Positions 31,610 through 62,015 of a stretch of 64,000 nucleotides of DNA are shown here, one piece after another (positions within the stretch are counted from its first letter, which is position 1; each line of letters starts with the position of its first letter). Below the pieces are notes generated by a model. The model saw only the letters and a program-made list of their open reading frames with translations. It was not told where the DNA came from and did no database searches. Source of the stretch: a virus (taxonomy: Duplodnaviria; Caudoviricetes); the IMG/VR virus record IMGVR_UViG_3300032254_000001, positions 224,001 to 288,000 of that record. The stretch is one strand, 5' to 3'. Position numbers and translations under genes: made by a program.

Positions 31610-31810
31610 CTAGTTGTCACATGCGTTGTACGCTTTAATTAACGAGTCAAGTATTTCCTTATCGATCTCGTCTGCTATTCCCTTGGCCATTTGCTTGACT
31701 AAGATATCTCGAAAACTCATCGACATATCAAACTCGTCTTCGACCGGCGGTATGCCGTTCTTTAAACGGTCCCAAACTTCTGCTTTTTCTTTTGAAAGTT
31801 TCTTAGCCAT
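31610..31810 (-). CDS. WxxL-tagged small protein with major-capsid-like fragment
   Basis: EVWDRLK tag; MAKGIADEIDKEILDSL vs gp23 LAQEITAEIDQEILLSL. Confidence 0.75.
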   Translation of the reverse strand: MAKKLSKEKAEVWDRLKNGIPPVEDEFDMSMSFRDILVKQMAKGIADEIDKEILDSLIKAYNACDN

Positions 31811-31812
31811 AC

Positions 31813-32028
31813 TTATGATACTACTATCGGATCATCAGGAAATGCACTCACTAATTTCCATACTGTGCCAGTAAACACATATATCTGCGAATCGTCTTTA
31901 TTGTAAATCATTGCACCGGCTGCTGGCGGACCTGTCACTGAAGAATTCCAGCCGACTTCGGAAGTCTGCTTAATTCCGTTCTTTAAACGATCCCAAACTT
32001 CTGCTTGATCAGATGTTAGTTCTTTCAA
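31813..32028 (-). CDS. WxxL-tagged small protein with tail-fibre-like motif
   Basis: EVWDRLK tag; AGAMIYN....QIYVFTGTVW. Confidence 0.7.
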   Translation of the reverse strand: MKELTSDQAEVWDRLKNGIKQTSEVGWNSSVTGPPAAGAMIYNKDDSQIYVFTGTVWKLVSAFPDDPIVVS

Positions 32029-32404
32029 GTAGGTCTTCCTCTATTCTTTTCTGCTTATTCTCTTTACTAATATGATGAAGAAAGGCTGAGTGACTAACTT
32101 GCACTAAAAATCCAAATGGGTTATTGCTTTTAGTTGAGTCAAAATGCTGATATGAAATTAACATTTGCATAACCGCAGCTTGAACTAAATCATCTGCGTA
32201 CACTAGACTCTGATAATGTTTTCTGTGTAGTAGTCTATCCGCAAGTTCTATCATGTACTTGCCTAATGCTTGCGATACTTTGCCATCATTTTGTGCATAG
32301 TCTATAGCAATAAGCAAATCAGAATTGTTGTTGATTGGACCGTAATAGCCCCACGGGTCAACTAACTTATCCCATACTGCACGTTGGTCTTTATTCAACA
32401 GCAT
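32009..32404 (-). CDS. WxxL-tagged truncated gp55-like sigma factor paralogue
   Basis: AVWDKL tag; IELADR..HR.HY....YADDL..A......FDSTKSNNPFGF......AFL..I.KE.KQ aligns with the gp55 core at 60984..61961. Confidence 0.75.
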   Translation of the reverse strand: MLLNKDQRAVWDKLVDPWGYYGPINNNSDLLIAIDYAQNDGKVSQALGKYMIELADRLLHRKHYQSLVYADDLVQAAVMQMLISYQHFDSTKSNNPFGFLVQVSHSAFLHHISKENKQKRIEEDLLERTNI

Positions 32405-32711
32405 TGAGTTTGTCCCATATAGCTTCTTTCTCTAAGCGATCATGGAACTCAATCATTGCTGCTTTTCTTTCTTTCTTAAAAAGATCAAGTGCTATCTTGT
32501 GTGGGCAGTCCTCAGGGTACTCAGTTATGTTGTGTTCAGCTTCGCTTAAGCGACAAGAAACCCAAGTGTTGTCTGACTCGTAGTCCCTGCTGTGATCGCT
32601 TATGTGTAATGTTTCATCCCACTCGTAGTAATTTTTACATTCAAGTATATCTCTGCACATACTGTCATAATGTATTCTAAACATCTTTCCTCTGCTCTGC
32701 TGCAATTTCAC
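32391..32711 (-). CDS. Cys/His-containing WxxL-tagged protein
   Basis: ECK.Y.E.D..C..NI.EYPE.C.H; AIWDKL; paralogue of 33765..34031. Confidence 0.7.
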   Translation of the reverse strand: MKLQQSRGKMFRIHYDSMCRDILECKNYYEWDETLHISDHSRDYESDNTWVSCRLSEAEHNITEYPEDCPHKIALDLFKKERKAAMIEFHDRLEKEAIWDKLNAVE

Positions 32712-32937
32712 TAATTAATATATCAGCTAGTTCTTGTTCAACATCTATTCCGTGTAGGGACTCTAGGTCTTTAGCAACGTCAACAGTCCAACTAGCACGT
32801 AGCCTACGGGTCACAGGGCCAGTCTCCTTTAGGCGGTCCCAAACTTTTTCTTTCTCTCGTTGAATAGCTTCTTTCTGCTTCCGGATACCGTTGCGGATCT
32901 TTCGTTGGTTCACTTGTATTGCTGTCTCTTTCATCAA
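32677..32937 (-). CDS. WxxL-tagged small protein with major-capsid fragment
   Basis: KVWDRLK; TRRLRASWT..DLESLHGIDVEQE..EIAAE is 21/39 identical to gp23 residues 167-205. Confidence 0.8.
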   Translation of the reverse strand: MMKETAIQVNQRKIRNGIRKQKEAIQREKEKVWDRLKETGPVTRRLRASWTVDVAKDLESLHGIDVEQELADILISEIAAEQRKDV

Positions 32938-33166
32938 ACTTCCATTCTCCTAGTATATGTTTATTAAATTCTGTCATATCTTTAGTCAGACTGTCAATGT
33001 ATGCGTCTACTAAAGACCAATCGATCCCATACTTCTGGGGGAGTTGTGTTACCCCAGATAATTTCTTCCATATGGTCTCTTCTTCTTTTTGCAGCCGCTC
33101 TCTTTCTTTTCGCCTCTGCTCTTTTCTTTTTCCGCGGGTCCTGAAACGTTTCCGTCTTGAAGTCAA
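32804..33166 (-). CDS. Arg-rich WxxL-tagged protein
   Basis: TTG start with GGAGG SD; TIWKKL; N-terminus paralogous to the 33419 gene. Confidence 0.7.
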   Translation of the reverse strand: MTSRRKRFRTRGKRKEQRRKERERLQKEEETIWKKLSGVTQLPQKYGIDWSLVDAYIDSLTKDMTEFNKHILGEWKFDERDSNTSEPTKDPQRYPEAERSYSTRERKSLGPPKGDWPCDP

Positions 33167-33419
33167 AATGAAACCCTCCTACTGGTTCTATACCTGCTGT
33201 TTGTTCGCCCATTGGCTGTACACCAACTAAGTCGTCTGCAATCATTACAGGTGCTATGCGTCTCATTAACGGCATTAAAATAGCGCCAAGATCATCCCAA
33301 TCGTATTCAGGTGGTAGTGGCGGGCTAACATTTGTTAACTTGTTCCAAGTCTCTAACGACTCTTTCCTTAGTGCTTTACGCTTACCACGCTGCCTACGTC
33401 TGCGCCTGACACTAGTCAT
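32994..33419 (-). CDS. Arg-rich WxxL-tagged protein with Gol-like major-capsid fragment
   Basis: ETWNKL and EVWDRL tags; LGAILMPLMRRIAPVMIADDLVGVQPM is 14/27 identical to gp23 residues 57-83. Confidence 0.8.
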   Translation of the reverse strand: MTSVRRRRRQRGKRKALRKESLETWNKLTNVSPPLPPEYDWDDLGAILMPLMRRIAPVMIADDLVGVQPMGEQTAGIEPVGGFHFDFKTETFQDPRKKKRAEAKRKRAAAKRRRDHMEEIIWGNTTPPEVWDRLVFSRRIH

Positions 33420-33765
33420 CGTCGGTAATATCCTTAGGTTTAGGTTTCATTATTATAACATTATCATGCTCGTCGGACTTCTCGTATTTGTTCTTAATAC
33501 TATCTAACTTTTCTTCAAATGTGTCGCAGGCCCACTCGTTTAATTGATTGTATAAGTCAGCAGCACCAGGCGTCACAGTGTGTCTAAATGTTTCTGTTTT
33601 TGAATCATAATTGCTGATTATACGTTCTATTCGTATTACCCGCTTCCTGCGCCACCAAGACTTGAAATGAATAGTAAAAACATCATAAACCTTTGTGCCA
33701 ATCTTATGCTCCATTGTGTGCTCGAAGTATTCGATTTTATCAAAAAATTCTTTAGGTAGTATCAT
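33412..33765 (-). CDS. Hypothetical protein (no tag)
   Basis: 117-aa coupled ORF. Confidence 0.65.
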   Translation of the reverse strand: MILPKEFFDKIEYFEHTMEHKIGTKVYDVFTIHFKSWWRRKRVIRIERIISNYDSKTETFRHTVTPGAADLYNQLNEWACDTFEEKLDSIKNKYEKSDEHDNVIIMKPKPKDITDDD

Positions 33766-34031
33766 TATAGGACCTGTATATGTACTGGATCACGTAAAAG
33801 TGATTTTACTGTTCTATGGGGTTGATTCAATTTCTTCCACATTATATCTTGTTGCTTTGCTTTATCTTTCGCAATGGTAATATCTTCAAGGTGCAAACAA
33901 CCTTCTGGATATTTAATAATGTTAATCGTCACACCCATTACAATACAGGAATGACATTTACCAACCTGCATATCAAACTCTCTGTGGTACTTGCATTCCT
34001 TTGATTTACAAAATTCATTAAAGTTATACAT
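33765..34031 (-). CDS. Cys/His-containing WxxL-tagged protein
   Basis: ECKYH.EFD..C..NI.KYPEGC.H; IMWKKL. Confidence 0.7.
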   Translation of the reverse strand: MYNFNEFCKSKECKYHREFDMQVGKCHSCIVMGVTINIIKYPEGCLHLEDITIAKDKAKQQDIMWKKLNQPHRTVKSLLRDPVHIQVL

Positions 34032-35055
34032 GCTCTACAACTACTTTTACATTTGGAAACGGTGTTATAAACTGCCCACATGCAGACTGAATTTCAACTC
34101 CGGTTGAAATTTGTATCTTTAAATTATTGTGAAACTTTGCAAACTGCACAATAATTTCCTTAAAGCGATCGCTTTCTTCCATTTCGTTAGCATCACATCT
34201 GTTATAGCGTAGTACTCTGAACTCGTAGTCTTCTAGATTCCACTTAGTGATAAAATCAAACAATGCTTGCACTTCTTCTTCGCTATCGTTAACACCATCC
34301 ATAAACATATGATGGAATATTAAATTATGTTTGTTGTTGTCTGCGTACTTTAACAGCTTCGGCATTGCTTCTTCCAATGGCATAGCTCCAGGAATAATTT
34401 GATCCCTAGTCTCTTGTACTGCACTGTGCAACGAATAAAACAATCTAAATGGACTGCGCTGTATGTAATTGCCCATTGATGATTGTGCTTCACTATGCAC
34501 AACAACCTTGTTATTTGGATTAGTTCCAAATGATTTTAGGTCTTCATTGAGCTCGTGAAATATGTCAATCCAATCATCGTTTCTAATTTTAGGTAGCACT
34601 GTTGAAAGATCAACACCATCTAAGCCTGCTGCGTAGTTGTTATCTGTTACGTAGTTTAACACATCGTTGGTTGCTCTGTACACCCCTGCTGGGTTAAGAA
34701 TTGCTTCGCCCATGCCCATCCAGCATACTTTCATGTATCTGCTTGCTATGCTTGCATCGTGTTGCACTGCATGATCAATTGCATCAATAAGATTTGATTG
34801 CACTGTAGTAATTGGCAGCTTCTTGTAAGGCATTTCTTTCATTGTTAAGTAACAGAAGTCACACTGCATCGGGCATCCGCCGCTAATCGATGCGAACACT
34901 GAATACTTATTTCTGTTAATAGGATTCATTTCCAGTACACCAGTTACTGGATTTCTAATTGTGTCGCAGCTTGAAACAGTTTTTATTGCAGTTTCAGACG
35001 TGTCGCTATGCACATACTTTGTTACTAGTCCGTCATCTGATTCAAAAACTTCCAT
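34024..35055 (-). CDS. RlmN/Cfr-like radical SAM protein
   Basis: GCPMQCDFC, MGMGE, SLHSA, EI.SACGQ motifs. Confidence 0.85.
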   Translation of the reverse strand: MEVFESDDGLVTKYVHSDTSETAIKTVSSCDTIRNPVTGVLEMNPINRNKYSVFASISGGCPMQCDFCYLTMKEMPYKKLPITTVQSNLIDAIDHAVQHDASIASRYMKVCWMGMGEAILNPAGVYRATNDVLNYVTDNNYAAGLDGVDLSTVLPKIRNDDWIDIFHELNEDLKSFGTNPNNKVVVHSEAQSSMGNYIQRSPFRLFYSLHSAVQETRDQIIPGAMPLEEAMPKLLKYADNNKHNLIFHHMFMDGVNDSEEEVQALFDFITKWNLEDYEFRVLRYNRCDANEMEESDRFKEIIVQFAKFHNNLKIQISTGVEIQSACGQFITPFPNVKVVVEHV

Positions 35056-35290
35056 TGGTATTCCTCTTCAATGAGTCCGGGTGAATTATTTCGTTACGAA
35101 CTCTGTTGTTTTCTCTTTCCCTTGCTGCTTCCATCTCTGCTAGTATCTCGTCTTGGATGCGACGAACTGCTTCTTCCATACGTCCTACCATGTGTCGTAG
35201 CATCTCTTCCCATTCCGTGTCATGGATAGAAGGTTCTTCCTGCAGACCGTTCTTTAAGCGATCCCAGACTTCTTCTTGCTCTGTGTTCAT
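35042..35290 (-). CDS. WxxL-tagged small protein
   Basis: EEVWDRLKNG. Confidence 0.7.
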   Translation of the reverse strand: MNTEQEEVWDRLKNGLQEEPSIHDTEWEEMLRHMVGRMEEAVRRIQDEILAEMEAARERENNRVRNEIIHPDSLKRNTNGSF

Positions 35291-35472
35291 GCCGTTGTGT
35301 CCGATACTATTGTTATAGCCTTGTCAGCTCGAAGCACCTGTGTTGACCAATATATCGATCGATACATAAGTGGTTCAAATTTAACCTTAGGCTCTGGAAC
35401 ATGCTTAAGCTTTTCCCACACCAGTTCTTTATCACTGGGTTCTGCAGATGTTACTTTCTTGACTTTTGCCAC
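35287..35472 (-). CDS. WxxL-tagged small protein
   Basis: ELVWEKLKHVPEPK, shared with the 36567 gene. Confidence 0.65.
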   Translation of the reverse strand: MAKVKKVTSAEPSDKELVWEKLKHVPEPKVKFEPLMYRSIYWSTQVLRADKAITIVSDTTA

Positions 35473-35671
35473 TAAATTTTAATGCGAAAATTATCGCATC
35501 CTCCTTATACTCAAACCACCAACGTGTGTTAGTGTAATGGTGATAAAAACATCCACCATCTTGTTGTTCGACACACCACTTGTGAGCTTCTTTAATACAG
35601 TCACGACATGGTGGTGGAACAACAAACCATAATTCATTACGATGTTCCTTAGGTGGATTACACCACTTCAC
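35432..35671 (-). CDS. Small 'W.FE..DA..F.LK' family protein
   Basis: KWC...WWFEYKEDAIIFALKF. Confidence 0.7.
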   Translation of the reverse strand: MKWCNPPKEHRNELWFVVPPPCRDCIKEAHKWCVEQQDGGCFYHHYTNTRWWFEYKEDAIIFALKFSGKSQESNICRTQ

Positions 35672-35919
35672 TCATCTTTACCTACTACCACATACTCGAC
35701 GCTAGATACGCCGTCACCTAAATCTTTGTGTACTAATTTAGTTTCCACCTTACCTCCTCGCATATCAGCGAACAGTTGCGATGCTTTTTTAAGTTCTTCT
35801 TCTGTGTTCTCTACTTCTTTCCAATTCGAAGCCTTGCTCAGCTTTTCCCACATTAATTCCTTATCGTCATCTTCTGTAGTCTTGCCAAGAAGTATTCTTT
35901 TAAAACGTTCTAAGTTCAT
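35668..35919 (-). CDS. WxxL-tagged small protein
   Basis: ELMWEKLS. Confidence 0.7.
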   Translation of the reverse strand: MNLERFKRILLGKTTEDDDKELMWEKLSKASNWKEVENTEEELKKASQLFADMRGGKVETKLVHKDLGDGVSSVEYVVVGKDE

Positions 35920-36143
35920 TTGTCGATTGTACTCTCAATATCGAAATACATTGTTTTACCAGCTCCGCGTCGTGCTGCTATTACAACCAATTCACCTTTG
36001 CCAACACCACCACACAATGCTCTACCTAATTGCTGTTGGTACCATGTTAGGCCGTTGCCATTAAATGGTGGTACATACTCTGTGGATAACTTTTCCCACA
36101 TTAGTTCCTGCTCAGCGGCTTTTGAGGATTTTGATTGTGACAT
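35916..36143 (-). CDS. WxxL-tagged protein with isolated P-loop (Walker A) fragment
   Basis: ELMWEKLS; GG...GELVVIAARRGAGKT. Confidence 0.75.
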   Translation of the reverse strand: MSQSKSSKAAEQELMWEKLSTEYVPPFNGNGLTWYQQQLGRALCGGVGKGELVVIAARRGAGKTMYFDIESTIDK

Positions 36144-36567
36144 TATTTGGATCCACCTCTTCTTTAGAAATACTTAGTATAGTGTCCATCATGCTCGGAT
36201 ATAATGAACTAATGTCATTATCAAACGTGCTACCCTTAGGCTGTGGAACATGTTTAAGCTTTTCCCAAACTTCTGCCTTTTCCTCTTCGATCTTCTGTAA
36301 TAAAATTTTAGCTTTAACACGGGTACCAAACACAGGACTTTTTGCAGCTTCCTGCAAGTCTGCTATCTCCATGCGGATCCGGTTGTCATGCTCCTCATCA
36401 GTATCAGTAATCATCCTAAGTCTAGCTTTTGCTCGTAGCCTAATGCCCATTGAATCATCCTTACTAAGGATTTTAAGATATTCCGGGCCATTGTTCATTA
36501 GCTCTATCTTCTCAGCTTCAGACATTGCCATTATTCTAATTTGGTCAAACAGATCAACTTCACTCAT
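36112..36567 (-). CDS. WxxL-tagged protein with DNA polymerase B motif-A fragment
   Basis: EVWEKLK; DISSLYPSMM. Confidence 0.75.
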   Translation of the reverse strand: MSEVDLFDQIRIMAMSEAEKIELMNNGPEYLKILSKDDSMGIRLRAKARLRMITDTDEEHDNRIRMEIADLQEAAKSPVFGTRVKAKILLQKIEEEKAEVWEKLKHVPQPKGSTFDNDISSLYPSMMDTILSISKEEVDPNNVTIKILKSR

Positions 36568-36797
36568 TTAAATTTTAATGCAAACAATGTTGCATCCTCT
36601 TCGTTTTCAAAATACCAATATGTTTCTCTAAATTCCACGTCCGCTTTATTTTCTTTATACCTGCGATAATATTGCCCTGATGAATTATGTCCTGTGCACC
36701 ATGATCCTTCCGCAGTATACGATCTAGATGCATGTCTAACTAATGTCACTTTATTCCACGGGTGGCCGTTAACATCGCCTATATCTTTATATTCCAC
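36564..36797 (-). CDS. Small 'W.FE..DA..F.LK' family protein
   Basis: WC..WYFENEEDATLFALKF. Confidence 0.7.
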   Translation of the reverse strand: MEYKDIGDVNGHPWNKVTLVRHASRSYTAEGSWCTGHNSSGQYYRRYKENKADVEFRETYWYFENEEDATLFALKFK

Positions 36798-38465: not shown

Positions 38466-38678
38466 TCATTTTAAGTCATCTTTTAGTGTAACACTTACTG
38501 GATATTTAATACCATCTTTGGTATGCTCTAATATCATGTGTGCTAGTTCGGATATAGTAGGATCTGGGTCGTTCTTAAATACATCAAGATGCTTACCATA
38601 ACGTACCATTATGAACTTTTCTTCAAACGGTAAGGAGTAGTACTTGATGTGATCAAATACATTTGATTCATTTGCCAT
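38466..38678 (-). CDS. Small hypothetical protein
   Basis: FIMVRYG, weakly like the LILKYG family. Confidence 0.6.
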   Translation of the reverse strand: MANESNVFDHIKYYSLPFEEKFIMVRYGKHLDVFKNDPDPTISELAHMILEHTKDGIKYPVSVTLKDDLK

Positions 38679-38847
38679 TATCTTTATCTCTTTGATCTAA
38701 ATAATCGTTAAGTGCTTTTACTGCTTCCGTTAAGTTGTCCTTATTTCTATCAGTATTGTATTTCTGGATTATATCCAATTTTTGTTCCGTTGTTAGGTAT
38801 TCCTTATTAAGGTTTTCCCATGTTTCTTCTTCAGGTGTTTTAGCCAT
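38668..38847 (-). CDS. Small WxxL-like tagged protein (59 aa)
   Basis: Not in track. MAKTPEEETWENLNKEY...; follows the promoter at 38886-38914. Confidence 0.6.
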   Translation of the reverse strand: MAKTPEEETWENLNKEYLTTEQKLDIIQKYNTDRNKDNLTEAVKALNDYLDQRDKDNGK

Positions 38848-38885: not shown

Positions 38886-38958
38886 AGTATAACAATTTAA
38901 AATGCGTTTGTCAACCTTATCGTAATATTTGACTTATACCCATTTTGCATGTTACACT
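38886..38958. promoter_or_regulatory. Back-to-back sigma70 promoters
   Basis: Minus: TTGACA-17-TATACT (38914-38886). Plus: TTGACT-18-TACACT (38929-38958). Confidence 0.7.
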
Positions 38959-40279: not shown

Positions 40280-40307
40280 AAAAAGCACTCTGTAAAGAGT
40301 GCTTTTT
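40280..40307. terminator. Bidirectional intrinsic terminator after gp23
   Basis: AAAAAGCACTCT-gtaa-AGAGTGCTTTTT. Confidence 0.85.
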
Positions 40308-40346: not shown

Positions 40347-41537
40347 TTAGCTAAAGCTTAAATTGCTGACTGCGACTTCCCCTAAATAATCTCCAGCATT
40401 ACCGAAAGATGATGCAGTATTCGTAAGCTCAATATAACCATAACGTGTCATAAAGCTTACAACTGGCTCAAATGTACTTGGATCAAGTACAACACCTGAA
40501 CTCATTAAAGGAACGTATGGGCAGTAGAACGCTGGTGCGTCTGCTTCGCTTGAACCTTTATAACCAACAAGTACTGGAGTAGTGTCGTTAGCATAGCTAT
40601 CAACGTAAACTTTCATTGCTGAGTTAAGAGTACCAACAAACTTAGTGTTTGTAGGAGCTTCAAATGTACCTTCAGTGGTACGTGCAAATGCAGAGGTAGT
40701 AGCTGACTGTAGTACAGTTAAAGAAGCTGGTGAAACAACTGCATAGTTACCAGCGCCACGACGTGTACGTGTAGCGATAAGGTTAGCTGTACGGTTGATA
40801 AGAACTGCTAATGCAGCATGTTCATCACCTACGAATGTAGCAGTACCTGAAACAAGTGACTGATCGTATGTGAATTCTGTGCTTGCTAATGAACGTAAAG
40901 ATAAAAGAATCTCTTGGTCAATTTCAGCAGTAATTTCTTGTGCTAAAGCAGCCATGATTTCAGCTTCAACATCAATGCCGTGCATTGACTGAGCATCTTG
41001 AGCAGCTTCAAAAGTCCAACGTGCTTGTAACTTACGTGTCTTAGCTTCAACAGCTTGCTTTAAGATCTGAACGGAAATGTTACGACCGCCTTCGCCTTCT
41101 AAGTTTGCTGTCTGTGCTGCACGGTAGTCAGCTTGTGTAGCGCCAACACCAGCTGAGTATGCTTGCGCAATCTTGAATGGTGATAGTGCTTCTTCGCCTG
41201 CTGCTGTACTAGTACTAGCTGCACTTGAATCAGTCATAGTAGAACCGTAACGTACACGAAGTGTATGAATCTGGCTTACAGGACCTGACATTGGCTGTAC
41301 ACCTACAAGTTCATTTGCAATGACTGTAGGCATAACACGTCGAATAACTGGTAAAATAACACGGTTTAATGTTGCAACGTTACCAGCGGCAGTAGCGCCA
41401 CTTGATGCAGATTCTGCTAAGTGGTTACGAGTGTTTTCCAAAATTACGCTCATTGTAGAACGTTTGGTACCGTCTAGACCTTCAAGCAATGCTTCTTTGG
41501 TCTCACCCCAACGGTTTTCTAATAGTGCTTGTGACAT
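40347..41537 (-). CDS. gp23: Major capsid protein
   Basis: IRR..P..IA..LVGVQPM, KTRKL.ARWT.E.AQD, EIDQEI, FYCPYVPL, MTRYG motifs. Confidence 0.98.
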   Translation of the reverse strand: MSQALLENRWGETKEALLEGLDGTKRSTMSVILENTRNHLAESASSGATAAGNVATLNRVILPVIRRVMPTVIANELVGVQPMSGPVSQIHTLRVRYGSTMTDSSAASTSTAAGEEALSPFKIAQAYSAGVGATQADYRAAQTANLEGEGGRNISVQILKQAVEAKTRKLQARWTFEAAQDAQSMHGIDVEAEIMAALAQEITAEIDQEILLSLRSLASTEFTYDQSLVSGTATFVGDEHAALAVLINRTANLIATRTRRGAGNYAVVSPASLTVLQSATTSAFARTTEGTFEAPTNTKFVGTLNSAMKVYVDSYANDTTPVLVGYKGSSEADAPAFYCPYVPLMSSGVVLDPSTFEPVVSFMTRYGYIELTNTASSFGNAGDYLGEVAVSNLSFS

Positions 41538-41558: not shown

Positions 41559-42659
41559 TTATTTTAAGCCAGCTAAAGTTTTAATATCAACGATATTGCT
41601 ATCATCGTTAGTATTTACTTTAGCTGTTTTATCACCAGTTACTTCTTTACGGCTTTCTGTTACTACGCGCTTCTTAGAAGGTGTAGCGTCATTGGCTTTA
41701 TTAGCAAGTACCGCTGGCAGATATTTCTCGAAAGCATTCGATAATCGACTTGTTTGAACGCTTTCTAATAAGTTTTGCATGATCTCACGCTTATCTTCGT
41801 TTAAAGGTGCTAACAAATCTGTCATAGCCTCATCACGTTGATTGCCTTCTTTTATCATACGAATTTCTTTGTTTTTACTTTCTGTAAGTGCTTCTAACTT
41901 AGTTGCTTTAGTAGCAGACTCTTTCAACTCTGTTTCCTTAGCTTCTAAACTATCTTTCAACTTACGGATTTCTGCATTTTCGTTTAAGTGTGTTGATGTA
42001 AACTCACTTGAAAAAGCTTCGAAAATACGTCGACCAAAGCTGTTCTCGCGAGCAGATTTGATGTCTTCTTGTAATGTTGTTAACTCTGTTGATAGTGTTG
42101 ACTTAACATGGTTCTGGACTTTAGCAGCACTTTCTTTAACGAAACGTGTTTTAAGTGCTTCTAGTTGTGTACGTGCTTCTGCAACAAGCTTAACCTTCGT
42201 TTCAACGACGTCTTGCTTATCTTTTGCAAATTCACGAACTTCTTTTGCTAACTGTTTAGCAACAAAAGATTCAACTGCTTCTAATCCTTCACTTTGGATT
42301 TGGCGGTCCTTACGTAGTTCTTTAATTTCTTCAGCTAACTTAGCAGTCATGAAATTATTAAACTTAGCACCGTTTTCAGCCATCTTCTTATTGAACTTAA
42401 CTCGATCTTCTGCTAATGCAGCTTTCTCTTCCTTAAATTCACTAATTTCAGACTGTAAACCTTCAGTAACCATTTTATCAAGAGCTTCGACCATTACTTT
42501 CTTGTCGTGATCGTAACGTTGTGCGAATTCCTCACGTAACTCAGTACGCAATTCTTCACGTGCTTCGTTTAACTTTGAATCCCAGGCTTCCATAATCTCT
42601 GAGCTGGTATCTTCGTTAATCACGTTACTGTCAAGCAATTGTTTGATTGCATCTAGCAT
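41559..42659 (-). CDS. gp22: Prohead core scaffold protein
   Basis: Acidic coiled coil between protease and capsid; FGR.IFEAF. Confidence 0.85.
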   Translation of the reverse strand: MLDAIKQLLDSNVINEDTSSEIMEAWDSKLNEAREELRTELREEFAQRYDHDKKVMVEALDKMVTEGLQSEISEFKEEKAALAEDRVKFNKKMAENGAKFNNFMTAKLAEEIKELRKDRQIQSEGLEAVESFVAKQLAKEVREFAKDKQDVVETKVKLVAEARTQLEALKTRFVKESAAKVQNHVKSTLSTELTTLQEDIKSARENSFGRRIFEAFSSEFTSTHLNENAEIRKLKDSLEAKETELKESATKATKLEALTESKNKEIRMIKEGNQRDEAMTDLLAPLNEDKREIMQNLLESVQTSRLSNAFEKYLPAVLANKANDATPSKKRVVTESRKEVTGDKTAKVNTNDDSNIVDIKTLAGLK

Positions 42660-52296: not shown

Positions 52297-54099
52297 TTAT
52301 TTTTCGGTGTAATCTTTATTAAGCCACGACGTCACTTCTTCTATACAAGTGTTAGGGTGGCTGTCTAATATAAATTCTATTGTTTTAATAACATCTGCAC
52401 ACGGTGTTCCGTTGCCTGTCCAACTATCTCTGCTTCTGCTTAGTGGTGTATCAAGTCTGTCAAAGTTAATTAAAGATGTTTTAAACGGTACTAAGTTATC
52501 TTTGAATGCTCGTGTGCATTGTTTGCTGGCATGTTCTAGAGCTGCTTTACTAACACGATAACGTTCAAATGATGGGTCTGGCGCAACTATATCCTTAAGA
52601 CCTGTGCTGCCTATGTTTATAATATGCCCCTGCTTATTTGCTGCTTTCCATGCATCGTATACAGCAATTAACAAGTTGACTTGTGCGAAGTTACTATGCG
52701 CTTCGCCTGCAGGACCATCAAATGCATTATTAATGAATACATCGTAATTAAGTGATTCTTGCACTATACGATCTATGTCGTATGGGTTAGTAATGTCTGC
52801 TTGCATGTCGGAATCTTCAGAGCGAGAAACGTTTACGCCTCTGAAGTGATTAATTAGTTCTAACCCTAATCCTCTATTTCCGCCTGTGATTAAATATTTG
52901 TTGCCCTGTGGTTCCAATTGATCCCATACCTTGTAAAATTCTTTACCACAAGTTAAAGCACATTCAAATAAACGTCCTTCTCCTAGTGGCTTGTTAAAAC
53001 TGTCTGTGACTTCTGTCCAGAACGGCTGTTTCATTATGTCAGCTAGTGTGTTGTGCTGTATACTTAATGTATTAAATGCATCATGCCTATTAAACAGATC
53101 CCGTATTTGATTTTCACCATTAGGTAAGAATGCCATATCGCTAGCACCAGGGAGTATATCCCTGTCATGGAAGCGAGCATCGTATAAATTATGATTGAAA
53201 AAGTTGCACGGCATAACAAGCCCATTGGCTGTTACTAATAATTTGCTTTTCTGGTTCTCACCATTGCCGTGGTGCGTACATAATGCATCGCATGTAATTG
53301 GTGTGCTACTAAAATACTTATGTAGATCATCATTATACTTGTCTTTAAGCTTTGGTAAATGTACCATGCTCTTATTTCGGTGGTCAAGCTCAGCAGGGTA
53401 TTCGATGTTGTATTCAACGTTGCCTGCTTTATCTTCTTTAGGCCATTGCTTAAGCTCACTGAAGTTGTTATATTCTAGGAATCTACCTGTAGAACGTTGA
53501 TTAAAAGATTCGAAGCCTATTAATGCTGCAAGCATACTAGCTTCTGCTACTTGGTGTTCGTTGTGCTTAAACACAATGAAATTCCATGCAGCTTTACCAC
53601 CTGCACGAATAAACGCTTCTGCATTTGTTATAATCTTATCGAAATCTGTATTACAGCGATACAAGTGATTTGTATCTTTAAGCCCATCTATGTTAAATTC
53701 TACTTTACCGTGTTCGCCAATGATCTCTGCAAGTTCTGCCCACCATTCGGTTTTACGTGCGCCACCATTTGTGTGTATTAAGATCCACAATGTGGGGTTT
53801 TTAGCACGAAAATCACGTAAAATATCTAAGAACTCTGGGTGTACAATTGGATCACCGTACCCTCCGCAGAAGAATATCTGGCGTAAATTAGCACAGATCT
53901 CTTTAGTAAAAGCTGTGTCAATGCATTCACGTGACAAGTGTTCTTTAACGATATGTGGGTTTTCTTTGCCACCATTTAAGTTCCTTGGGCACTGCGGACA
54001 CGCCGCATTGCAGAAATTAGTAATCTCTAGCTGGAACTCATCTACATTGTCTAGTTTAAATTTCAGGGAGGTCACCATCGTCAAAGAAGTCTTTAGCAC
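52297..54099 (-). CDS. Radical SAM domain fused to a short-chain dehydrogenase/reductase
   Basis: CNAACPQC, F.GG.GDP, TNG; C-terminal ITGGNRGLG, NNA, YRVSK. Confidence 0.85.
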   Translation of the reverse strand: MLKTSLTMVTSLKFKLDNVDEFQLEITNFCNAACPQCPRNLNGGKENPHIVKEHLSRECIDTAFTKEICANLRQIFFCGGYGDPIVHPEFLDILRDFRAKNPTLWILIHTNGGARKTEWWAELAEIIGEHGKVEFNIDGLKDTNHLYRCNTDFDKIITNAEAFIRAGGKAAWNFIVFKHNEHQVAEASMLAALIGFESFNQRSTGRFLEYNNFSELKQWPKEDKAGNVEYNIEYPAELDHRNKSMVHLPKLKDKYNDDLHKYFSSTPITCDALCTHHGNGENQKSKLLVTANGLVMPCNFFNHNLYDARFHDRDILPGASDMAFLPNGENQIRDLFNRHDAFNTLSIQHNTLADIMKQPFWTEVTDSFNKPLGEGRLFECALTCGKEFYKVWDQLEPQGNKYLITGGNRGLGLELINHFRGVNVSRSEDSDMQADITNPYDIDRIVQESLNYDVFINNAFDGPAGEAHSNFAQVNLLIAVYDAWKAANKQGHIINIGSTGLKDIVAPDPSFERYRVSKAALEHASKQCTRAFKDNLVPFKTSLINFDRLDTPLSRSRDSWTGNGTPCADVIKTIEFILDSHPNTCIEEVTSWLNKDYTEK

Positions 54100-60983: not shown

Positions 60984-61961
60984 TTATGAATCGTCAGTTT
61001 TCTTTTTGTTGGGGTTACACAAGTTATAATCGTATGCAAAGTCTTCTTTCTTGCCTTCGTTTGCAAACTGTCTAGTCCAACTAGGTGTTAGTCCGTTAGC
61101 TTCGAGAATATCATCACGTATATTTTGCATCTTCTTCTCAATGTTTAGTACACGAGTAAAGCTGTTAGTCACTGCGGCAGTGTAGTACGCAAATGGGTTC
61201 TGTGATTTAAGTTCATTAAACTGTAGCCCAATCTGTGATAGCTGCAATAACGCTTGTCCTTGCATCTCATCGTTATACGTATACCCACGCCAGTTACTAC
61301 GTGTGCCATAACGTTCGCATAGCTTTATGTACATCATAGCTAAGTTATTTGTAGTTCTGCCATGATCTTTGGTAAACTTGCCTTCTTCGATATCGCCCTT
61401 CCAGTGTGATTTACCTACTATTTCTGCAGATAGCTCACCATCTGTGTCTGTTACACGGTAATGGAAGAATGGAGGGAAGTTAACACGCATTGGTATCATT
61501 TCAACATCTGGATCAGTTGGTGATAATGATTGATCATCGTCAGTTTCGATTAGTTCGTCAAATACTGCGTTTGCTTTTGCTTGTTTCGCTGCTTTAGCTA
61601 ATGCCGCTTTTGATTTCTTCTTAGGCACTAGCGGAATGTGCTCATTGGTCATAACACGGAATACAACATCATGCAGTTCAACGTCTGCTACATCTGTCGG
61701 TATTTCTAACTTAGTGAGTCGTGTTGCTCGTGCTTGTCTAGCTAAATCAACGACGGGTACGTCTTTGAATGTAGGGTTACCGTTTTCGTCTTTGCCGACA
61801 TCAACGTTCTGTGTTCCCCAAATTTCTTCTAGTGATTCTACTATGAAGTCTTGCTGATTGTCCTCAACTTTATCTTTAAAGGAACAATATGATATTTTGC
61901 TTAGGTGTATTTCTTTAAGCATATCCTTATTATTTAAGTAATTCTTTTTTCTCTTAGCCAT
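60984..61961 (-). CDS. gp55: Late transcription sigma factor
   Basis: NYLNNKDML.EI; L.ERY..R.NWRGYTY.DEM; F.E.KS.NPFAYYT; start MAKRKK after GAGGA. Confidence 0.93.
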   Translation of the reverse strand: MAKRKKNYLNNKDMLKEIHLSKISYCSFKDKVEDNQQDFIVESLEEIWGTQNVDVGKDENGNPTFKDVPVVDLARQARATRLTKLEIPTDVADVELHDVVFRVMTNEHIPLVPKKKSKAALAKAAKQAKANAVFDELIETDDDQSLSPTDPDVEMIPMRVNFPPFFHYRVTDTDGELSAEIVGKSHWKGDIEEGKFTKDHGRTTNNLAMMYIKLCERYGTRSNWRGYTYNDEMQGQALLQLSQIGLQFNELKSQNPFAYYTAAVTNSFTRVLNIEKKMQNIRDDILEANGLTPSWTRQFANEGKKEDFAYDYNLCNPNKKKTDDS

Positions 61962-61987
61962 AAAATCCTCGTTGCTGTAGTGCATAC

Positions 61988-62015
61988 AGTATAACATGAT
62001 GTGCGTATTTGTCAA
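61988..62015 (-). promoter_or_regulatory. Sigma70 promoter TTGACA-16-TATACT for gp55
   Basis: Near-consensus hexamers. Confidence 0.65.

Follow-up and report, generated by a model that had tools for sequence, protein, structure and literature searches.

Family B DNA polymerases, such as gp43 of T4 and RB69, carry the catalytic motif A, DxxSLYPS. In phage T4, a 29-residue segment of the capsid protein gp23, Gol, is the most conserved part of that protein; it binds EF-Tu and activates the abortive-infection protease Lit (PMC3014915). Gol corresponds to gp23 residues 93-122 and is active as a stand-alone peptide, but it is part of gp23 and not a separate gene. Lit and CapRel read short motifs of the major capsid protein (MCP), and the Avs families sense MCP, helicase ATPase and DNA polymerase (bioRxiv 10.64898/2026.01.04.697583). 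Phages also encode anti-defence mimics and decoys, for instance sensor-binding inhibitors such as DSAD1 (PMC11087589), while Ocr is a mimic of DNA. The T4 internal proteins IPI-III are small, fast-evolving proteins in a hypervariable locus, where a short capsid-targeting sequence (CTS), about 10 aa at the extreme N-terminus and ending in an L-x-E prohead-protease site, is joined to unrelated bodies. Finally, in T4-type hyperplastic regions small early genes are reported to be exchanged as modules between related phages, with junctions at PeSL cassettes, a DNA or RNA promoter-stem-loop between genes (Arbiol et al. 2010).

Here, we examine a 64,000-nt stretch (the window), bases 224001-288000 of a 344,483-bp virus record with direct terminal repeats. 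The genome belongs to a T4-like jumbo myovirus, in which the tail sheath, portal, prohead protease and gp23-type capsid protein are all recognisable. The nearest cultured relatives, PA5oct and Atu_ph07, share only about 50% identity in the portal protein. Downstream of the capsid gene lies a cluster of about a dozen small genes, in which a shared short tag is joined to a body, and for several of them the body is a segment of a core phage protein, see Table 1. To the best of our knowledge, this arrangement has not been described in the libraries or the literature searched, and a literature search for tagged capsid-gene fragments found nothing relevant.

Compared with family B polymerases, the 151-aa ORF studied here matches over about 15 residues only, D-[VI]-[NS]-S-[LM]-Y-(P) preceded by hydrophobic residues. 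It lacks the exonuclease motifs and motifs B and C, and it cannot be a polymerase. Compared with Gol, the sibling 141-aa ORF carries an equivalent segment (..RR..P..IA..L.GVQPM..) as a free-standing tagged gene, although no Lit homologue or host is known for this phage. Compared with the T4 internal proteins, the tag is not strictly N-terminal, as it lies 9-101 residues from the start and sometimes at the C-terminus, it shows no L-x-E pattern, and the bodies are fragments of core proteins. The known mimics and decoys are dedicated folds and not arrays of tagged fragments of the phage's own core proteins; the proposed logic, to occupy a host sensor with a look-alike, is the same, but no sensor has been identified here. 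In contrast to PeSL, the tag is inside the coding sequence and is conserved as a peptide.

Table 1. Features of the tagged-gene cluster and its surroundings; positions refer to the window.
Position	Strand	Feature	Support
36112..36567	-	151-aa ORF, in-frame fusion of a HEAT-like gene and a tagged mini-protein gene; its start overlaps the upstream stop (ATGA)	phmmer; separate adjacent genes in relatives
36283..36567	-	Residues 1-95, two-repeat HEAT-like domain; family of free-standing 83-103-aa proteins	phmmer hits P0002-P0014; family alignment; lead-level atlas hits to HEAT families
36112..36297	-	Residues 91-151, tagged mini-protein module: tag helix, P-rich linker, D-x-x-S-L-Y block, C-terminal VTIK[IV]LK[NS]R; free-standing 58-68 aa in relatives	phmmer and profile searches
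36256..36267	-	Tag core WEKL (W101-L104), predicted helix	AF2
36187..36216	-	DISSLYPSMM (D118-M127), PolB motif-A-like block	Profile-profile alignment
36112..36143		32-nt overlap of the module gene (3' end) and the P-loop mini-gene (5' end) in two frames
35916..36143	-	75-aa tagged mini-protein with a DnaB-like Walker A segment	phrog_19 E 4.8e-5; own DnaB E 1.4e-3; homologue in L014 E 5.8e-6
35287..35472	-	61-aa degenerate paralogue of the module; tag and linker near-identical at DNA level for about 35 nt; D and S lost
32994..33419	-	141-aa ORF: Arg-rich leader, tag, capsid-protein segment equivalent to T4 gp23 residues 92-122 (Gol region); second tag at the C-terminus	Pfam Gp23 positions 6-37, E 5e-6, above cutoff; alignment with T4 gp23
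32677..32937	-	86-aa ORF: leader, tag, 44-aa capsid-protein helix segment (own MCP residues 166-207)	Pfam Gp23 positions 147-190, E 5e-12; 670 phage MCP hits
31610..31810	-	66-aa tagged ORF, weak match to capsid-protein residues about 189-214	E 0.0015-0.03 (weak)
32009..32404	-	131-aa ORF: tag plus core (region 2) of the late sigma factor	phrog_234 E 1e-16; Sigma70_r2 E 1e-6; own 343-aa sigma E 5e-9
31813..32028	-	71-aa tagged ORF with a tail-fibre-type motif	Weak DUF2793 hit, E 0.006; homologues in L008, L010 and G002
33765..34031	-	88-aa Cys-rich ORF with a C-terminal tag	Weak primase zinc-finger hit, E 0.0017
35668..35919	-	83-aa tagged ORF, body unidentified
35042..35290	-	82-aa tagged ORF, body unidentified
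38668..38847	-	59-aa tagged ORF (TWENL), first of the cluster
32804..33166	-	120-aa ORF with Arg-rich leader and tag, overlapping its neighbours in another frame
32391..32711	-	106-aa ORF ending in a tag
33018..33070		Pair of tags in different reading frames at a gene junction
32363..32417		Pair of tags in different reading frames at a gene junction
34024..35055		343-aa radical-SAM protein gene inside the cluster
36564..36797		~78-aa ORF ending in FALKF, first of two paralogues
35432..35671		~78-aa ORF ending in FALKF, second of two paralogues
38886..38914	-	Sigma-70-like promoter (extended -10) ahead of the first tagged ORF	11/12 match; consensus match only
40280..40307	.	Strong hairpin terminator between the capsid gene and the cluster
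40347..41537	-	Major capsid protein (gp23-like), parent of the capsid fragments	
41559..42659		Scaffold-like protein	phrog_10922
46143..46667		Homing-endonuclease-like ORF directly upstream of the portal gene	phrog_314
52297..54099		Second radical-SAM plus FabG-like ORF
60984..62015	-	Late sigma factor (gp55-like), parent of the sigma fragment

An earlier note, made from the sequence alone, had pointed to an isolated polymerase motif A next to the tag, in a 151-aa protein with no other polymerase features. This observation is correct: the motif lies 13 residues after the tag core, and no Pfam or PHROG polymerase family hits the ORF. D..SLYPS[IM] is expected 0.0017 times in the six-frame translation of the whole genome. 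SLYPS occurs only twice, here and in the phage's own PolB, a 919-aa frame at genome positions 108232..110988 that reads VDINSLYPSAI. One correction is needed, however, as the 151-aa protein is a fusion and the motif belongs to its C-terminal ~60-aa module.

An exhaustive phmmer search of 1.8 billion representatives splits the ORF in two. The N-terminal part matches free-standing proteins, while residues 91-151 match free-standing proteins of 60-64 aa, a range that a profile search extends. In L012 and L014, two loci of related uncultured phages, a ~98-aa gene, a 52-62-aa gene and a 70-78-aa gene are separate and adjacent, in that order. The in-frame fusion is unique to this genome, as a word-indexed search and an IMG/VR pattern scan with the whole ORF returned only the ORF itself, or nothing. 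The N-terminal half looks like two tandem HEAT-type repeats; two repeats with the D/S-x-x-VR-x-x-A signature are visible in the family alignment, and atlas feature hits of 0.81-0.86 go mostly to HEAT families, which is lead level only; there is no Pfam hit. A complex prediction between the two halves, which are fused here and adjacent elsewhere, returned no verdict and is not counted as evidence either way.

The note had named loss of the SLYPS residues in homologues as the result that would refute its reading, and the answer is mixed. In 19 intact homologues at 36-53% identity the block reads D (19/19), V/I/L (19/19), N/S (19/19), S (17/19), M/L (17/19) and Y (19/19), followed by P (8/19) and S (5/19). 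One natural variant, the 52-aa protein of L014, has lost the D..S part but keeps YPSAI. The core of motif A is therefore conserved, but the full SLYPS is not.

HMMER does not link the family to PolB. A family profile gives only chance hits among PDB sequences, and only 1 of 19 members gives a weak DNA_pol_B_2 hit in Pfam (E 0.018). More sensitive comparisons suggest a relationship. With the tag removed, the best non-self hit of the family profile among all 5128 six-frame ORFs of the genome is the phage's own PolB at residues 387-401, i.e. motif A (E 0.035), and the full profile also picks PolB motif A as the top non-self hit in another phage contig (E 0.008). An hhalign comparison with an alignment of 50 distinct PolB fragments from related viral contigs aligns 15 columns centred on motif A, with probability 86-89%, P 2-5e-6 and score 36, while 120 column-shuffled controls have a mean of 10.8, an sd of 2.2 and a maximum of 20.1. 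In addition, the Asn at +2 and the YPSAI of a subfamily match this lineage's own PolB. The similarity is short but real at family level. The sibling tagged ORFs are demonstrably fragments of other core phage proteins, which makes a PolB origin credible. The AF2 model of the module is of low confidence (pLDDT 63, pTM 0.24) except for the tag helix, too poor for a fold search, and the ESM Atlas gave nothing usable for the module.

The tag (consensus E-x-[VLM]-W-[DE]-[KR]-L, relaxed W-x-[KR]-L) occurs 15 times in frame on the minus strand between 31.7 and 38.8 kb, within 8 kb downstream of the capsid gene. The rest of the genome has 52 copies in all six frames, which makes the cluster about 24-fold denser. 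Leu, Arg and Asp codons vary synonymously between copies, so the tag is conserved as a peptide, and a DNA or promoter motif can be rejected. The paired tags at gene junctions are 41-43 nt apart and some ORFs end in a tag, suggesting repeated fusion or recombination at tags. Each gene has a variable, often basic leader, the shared helix tag, a Pro-rich linker and a short body, which for several siblings is a recognisable 25-90-residue segment of a core phage protein. Many leaders are very basic. Those of the 141-aa and 120-aa ORFs, and some in L014 and L012, are extremely Arg-rich and followed by the tag Trp (MTSVRRRRRQRGKRK...W.KL), and it can be speculated that they resemble arginine-rich RNA-binding peptides such as lambda N.

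A direct phmmer search of all small ORFs against the phage's own large proteins reproduces the capsid, DnaB and sigma parents. In relatives it adds a further capsid segment, the C-terminal FYCPYVP region. The capsid fragments coincide with the local conservation peaks between this capsid protein and T4 gp23, but detectability biases that result, and detecting fragments only from conserved segments is partly an ascertainment bias. In the P-loop mini-protein family, [AG]xxxxGK[ST] is present in 7/7 close homologues and GK[ST] in 17 of 24 wider homologues. These proteins are 57-119 aa long, most of them 57-80 aa and ending 0-25 residues after the P-loop, and thus do not contain a complete RecA-type ATPase core of about 250 aa with Walker B and arginine finger. 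The overlap of this gene with the module gene recurs, at 32-50 nt, in the related loci L012, L014, L008 and L006. The conserved C-terminus VTIKVLKNR and the conserved N-terminus MSQSKSLK are therefore dual-coded, and the two genes are probably translationally coupled.

The cluster is syntenic in the related loci L006, L008, L010, L012 and L014, and is also present, with the same fragment types, in G002, a more distant 250-kb relative (PolB fragment 77% identical); the same fragment types occur in the five related loci. G002 again has a PolB-like member (..HIVDYDISSFYPGVIRD..), a P-loop member, a capsid C-terminal member, a sigma member, a zinc-finger member and a tail-fibre-motif member. The closest large relative, G001, has a shorter cluster without these fragment genes, so the content is accessory. 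The radical-SAM gene inside the cluster is absent from the equivalent place in G001, and L005, a radical-SAM relative, has no tags. Leaders and bodies are recombined. The leader and tag of the capsid-helix mini-protein are joined to the PolB-like and P-loop bodies in G002 and to an unrelated body in G001. A 68-aa metagenomic homologue, P0027, joins the tag and DLSSMYP to a P-loop (AGRNTGKS), a natural fusion of the two adjacent mini-gene types that complements the HEAT-module fusion of the window. The two paralogous ORFs ending in FALKF flank the trio of 151-, 75- and 83-aa genes. The second is 87% identical to its L008 counterpart, far more conserved than the tagged genes, which suggests a local segmental duplication. 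In a comparison with L010 and L008, the C-terminal 202 aa of the capsid protein are 98.5% identical to those of a relative whose neighbouring genes are only 40-67% identical, reflecting either extreme constraint or recent exchange of the capsid gene.

Among 50,697 phage records, megablast of the cluster gave no match and tblastn of the module gave no match at E<=1. Cultured phages searched with the capsid mini-protein show only their capsid gene (670 records, one place each except a single record). The copies are neither recent nor DNA-level. Nucleotide identity to the parents is 31-60%, third positions are unremarkable and the longest exact matches are 11-16 nt, which rules out a recent duplication, a homing-site copy or a recombination template. 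Capture by a reverse transcriptase was also considered, but none is found in the genome. The timing evidence is weak. Two sigma-70-like sites with 11/12 matches hint at early expression, but the count of such sites is not above chance; no T4-type late promoter TATAAATA lies in the cluster, and its window-wide count is not above chance either.

We suggest, tentatively, that the mini-proteins, a conserved and fast-evolving set, act as competitive mimics. In this view, the body of the module is most likely the piece of a family B polymerase covering the motif A strand and helix, kept not for catalysis but because it copies a conserved surface or peptide of the parent. The proteins would occupy whatever recognises such segments, most plausibly host abortive-infection sensors that read short motifs of core phage proteins, and the tag, an amphipathic helix followed by a Pro-rich linker, would be a handle for one shared partner. 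The analysis itself establishes the ORF family, the fusion, the tag cluster, the fragment identities of the siblings, the profile-level similarity to motif A, the conservation across diverged phages and the swapping of bodies behind the tag. Descent from PolB is an inference that we consider more likely than not, whereas the mimic or decoy function and its target are inferred and doubtful on present evidence. No experiment or partner links any of these proteins to a defence system, and a free Gol-like peptide would be expected to trigger rather than block Lit unless it is altered. The note's interpretation, a mimic of the polymerase palm that may be bait for replisome-sensing defences, is thus supported in part. 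The motif is probably a polymerase-derived fragment and may be a mimic, but a palm mimic is not supported, and the bait role remains a hypothesis, which gains plausibility from the Gol-like capsid fragment nearby and from the sensors that target capsid protein, helicase ATPase and DNA polymerase (PMC3014915; bioRxiv 10.64898/2026.01.04.697583).

A bolder version, which we consider unlikely but cannot exclude, is that the cluster is a phage-encoded library of peptide mimics. Each mini-protein would present one of the most conserved short segments of the core phage proteome (capsid Gol region, capsid helix and C-terminal motif, helicase P-loop, polymerase motif A, sigma region 2, tail-fibre motif) behind a common tag, with bodies exchanged as modules. 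It would pre-empt motif-sensing abortive-infection systems or sabotage competing phages, as a protein-level counterpart of an array of interchangeable recognition units.

Among the alternatives, the one that survives best, although unlikely, is that the motif is coincidental or convergent. The ~60-aa family would then be a genuine small phage protein whose D-[VI]-[NS]-S-[LM]-Y block is a generic strand-to-helix cap without any link to polymerases. The negative HMMER searches, the only 4-6 shared positions, the variable P and S, and the selection of the motif after the fact from many recognisable motifs favour this; the shuffled controls, the top non-self hits in two phage genomes, the residues shared with this lineage's PolB and the neighbouring core-protein fragments speak against it.

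Less likely, the mini-proteins could be dominant-negative or regulatory fragments aimed at phage proteins. They would compete with full-length capsid, helicase, sigma or polymerase proteins of co-infecting related phages (exclusion), or of the phage itself (timing), for partners such as RNAP core, EF-Tu or oligomer interfaces. Sigma region 2 is the part that binds RNAP core. The tagged, truncated second copy of the late sigma factor, region 2 only, could act as a competitor for RNAP core. Further, the fragments are no closer to the phage's own proteins than to those of distant T4-like phages, and the DnaB fragment resembles canonical DnaB more than the phage's own copy. However, PolB motif A is buried and is not an interface, self-poisoning would have to be avoided, and no data on timing or targets support this reading.

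Also improbable is that the tag is a capsid-targeting element analogous to the T4 CTS, so that the mini-proteins would be packed into the head and injected, which could coexist with a decoy role. The cluster lies directly after the portal, protease, scaffold-like and capsid genes, the leaders are often basic, and the scaffold-like protein has a tag-like EAWDSKL near its N-terminus (EIMEAWDSKLNEA), conserved in G001 and G002, a possible link between the tag and head assembly. On the other hand, the variable position of the tag, the missing protease-site pattern, the terminator after the capsid gene and the lack of a T4-type late promoter in the cluster argue against it. Gene debris from illegitimate recombination or partial duplications, for example a decayed second, gp24-like capsid gene, is the least likely, as despite the variable cluster content among relatives, the overlapping frames, the duplicated tags at junctions, the absence of a gp24-like paralogue from the genome and the collinearity of the three capsid pieces in this phage, the ORFs stay open with conserved ends in 19-24 diverged homologues per family, the same fragment types persist in a distant relative, the capsid pieces are not collinear in L012 and L014, the DnaB, sigma and PolB pieces cannot come from a capsid gene, and no residual DNA identity to the parents remains. 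As the sole source of the fragments, a decayed gp24-like paralogue can be rejected.

If these mini-proteins really present conserved pieces of capsid, helicase, polymerase and sigma proteins, they would be a new way for a virus to deal with factors that recognise its unchangeable core proteins, mirroring the recent finding that bacterial sensors survey the core phage proteome. They would also point directly at which short segments are being sensed, and each mini-gene would be a ready-made probe for finding its host or phage partner, including a free-standing Gol-like peptide that can be tested against Lit and EF-Tu. Even if the function differs, the modular design of a tag plus a captured fragment is an unusual route of gene birth in phage hyperplastic regions.
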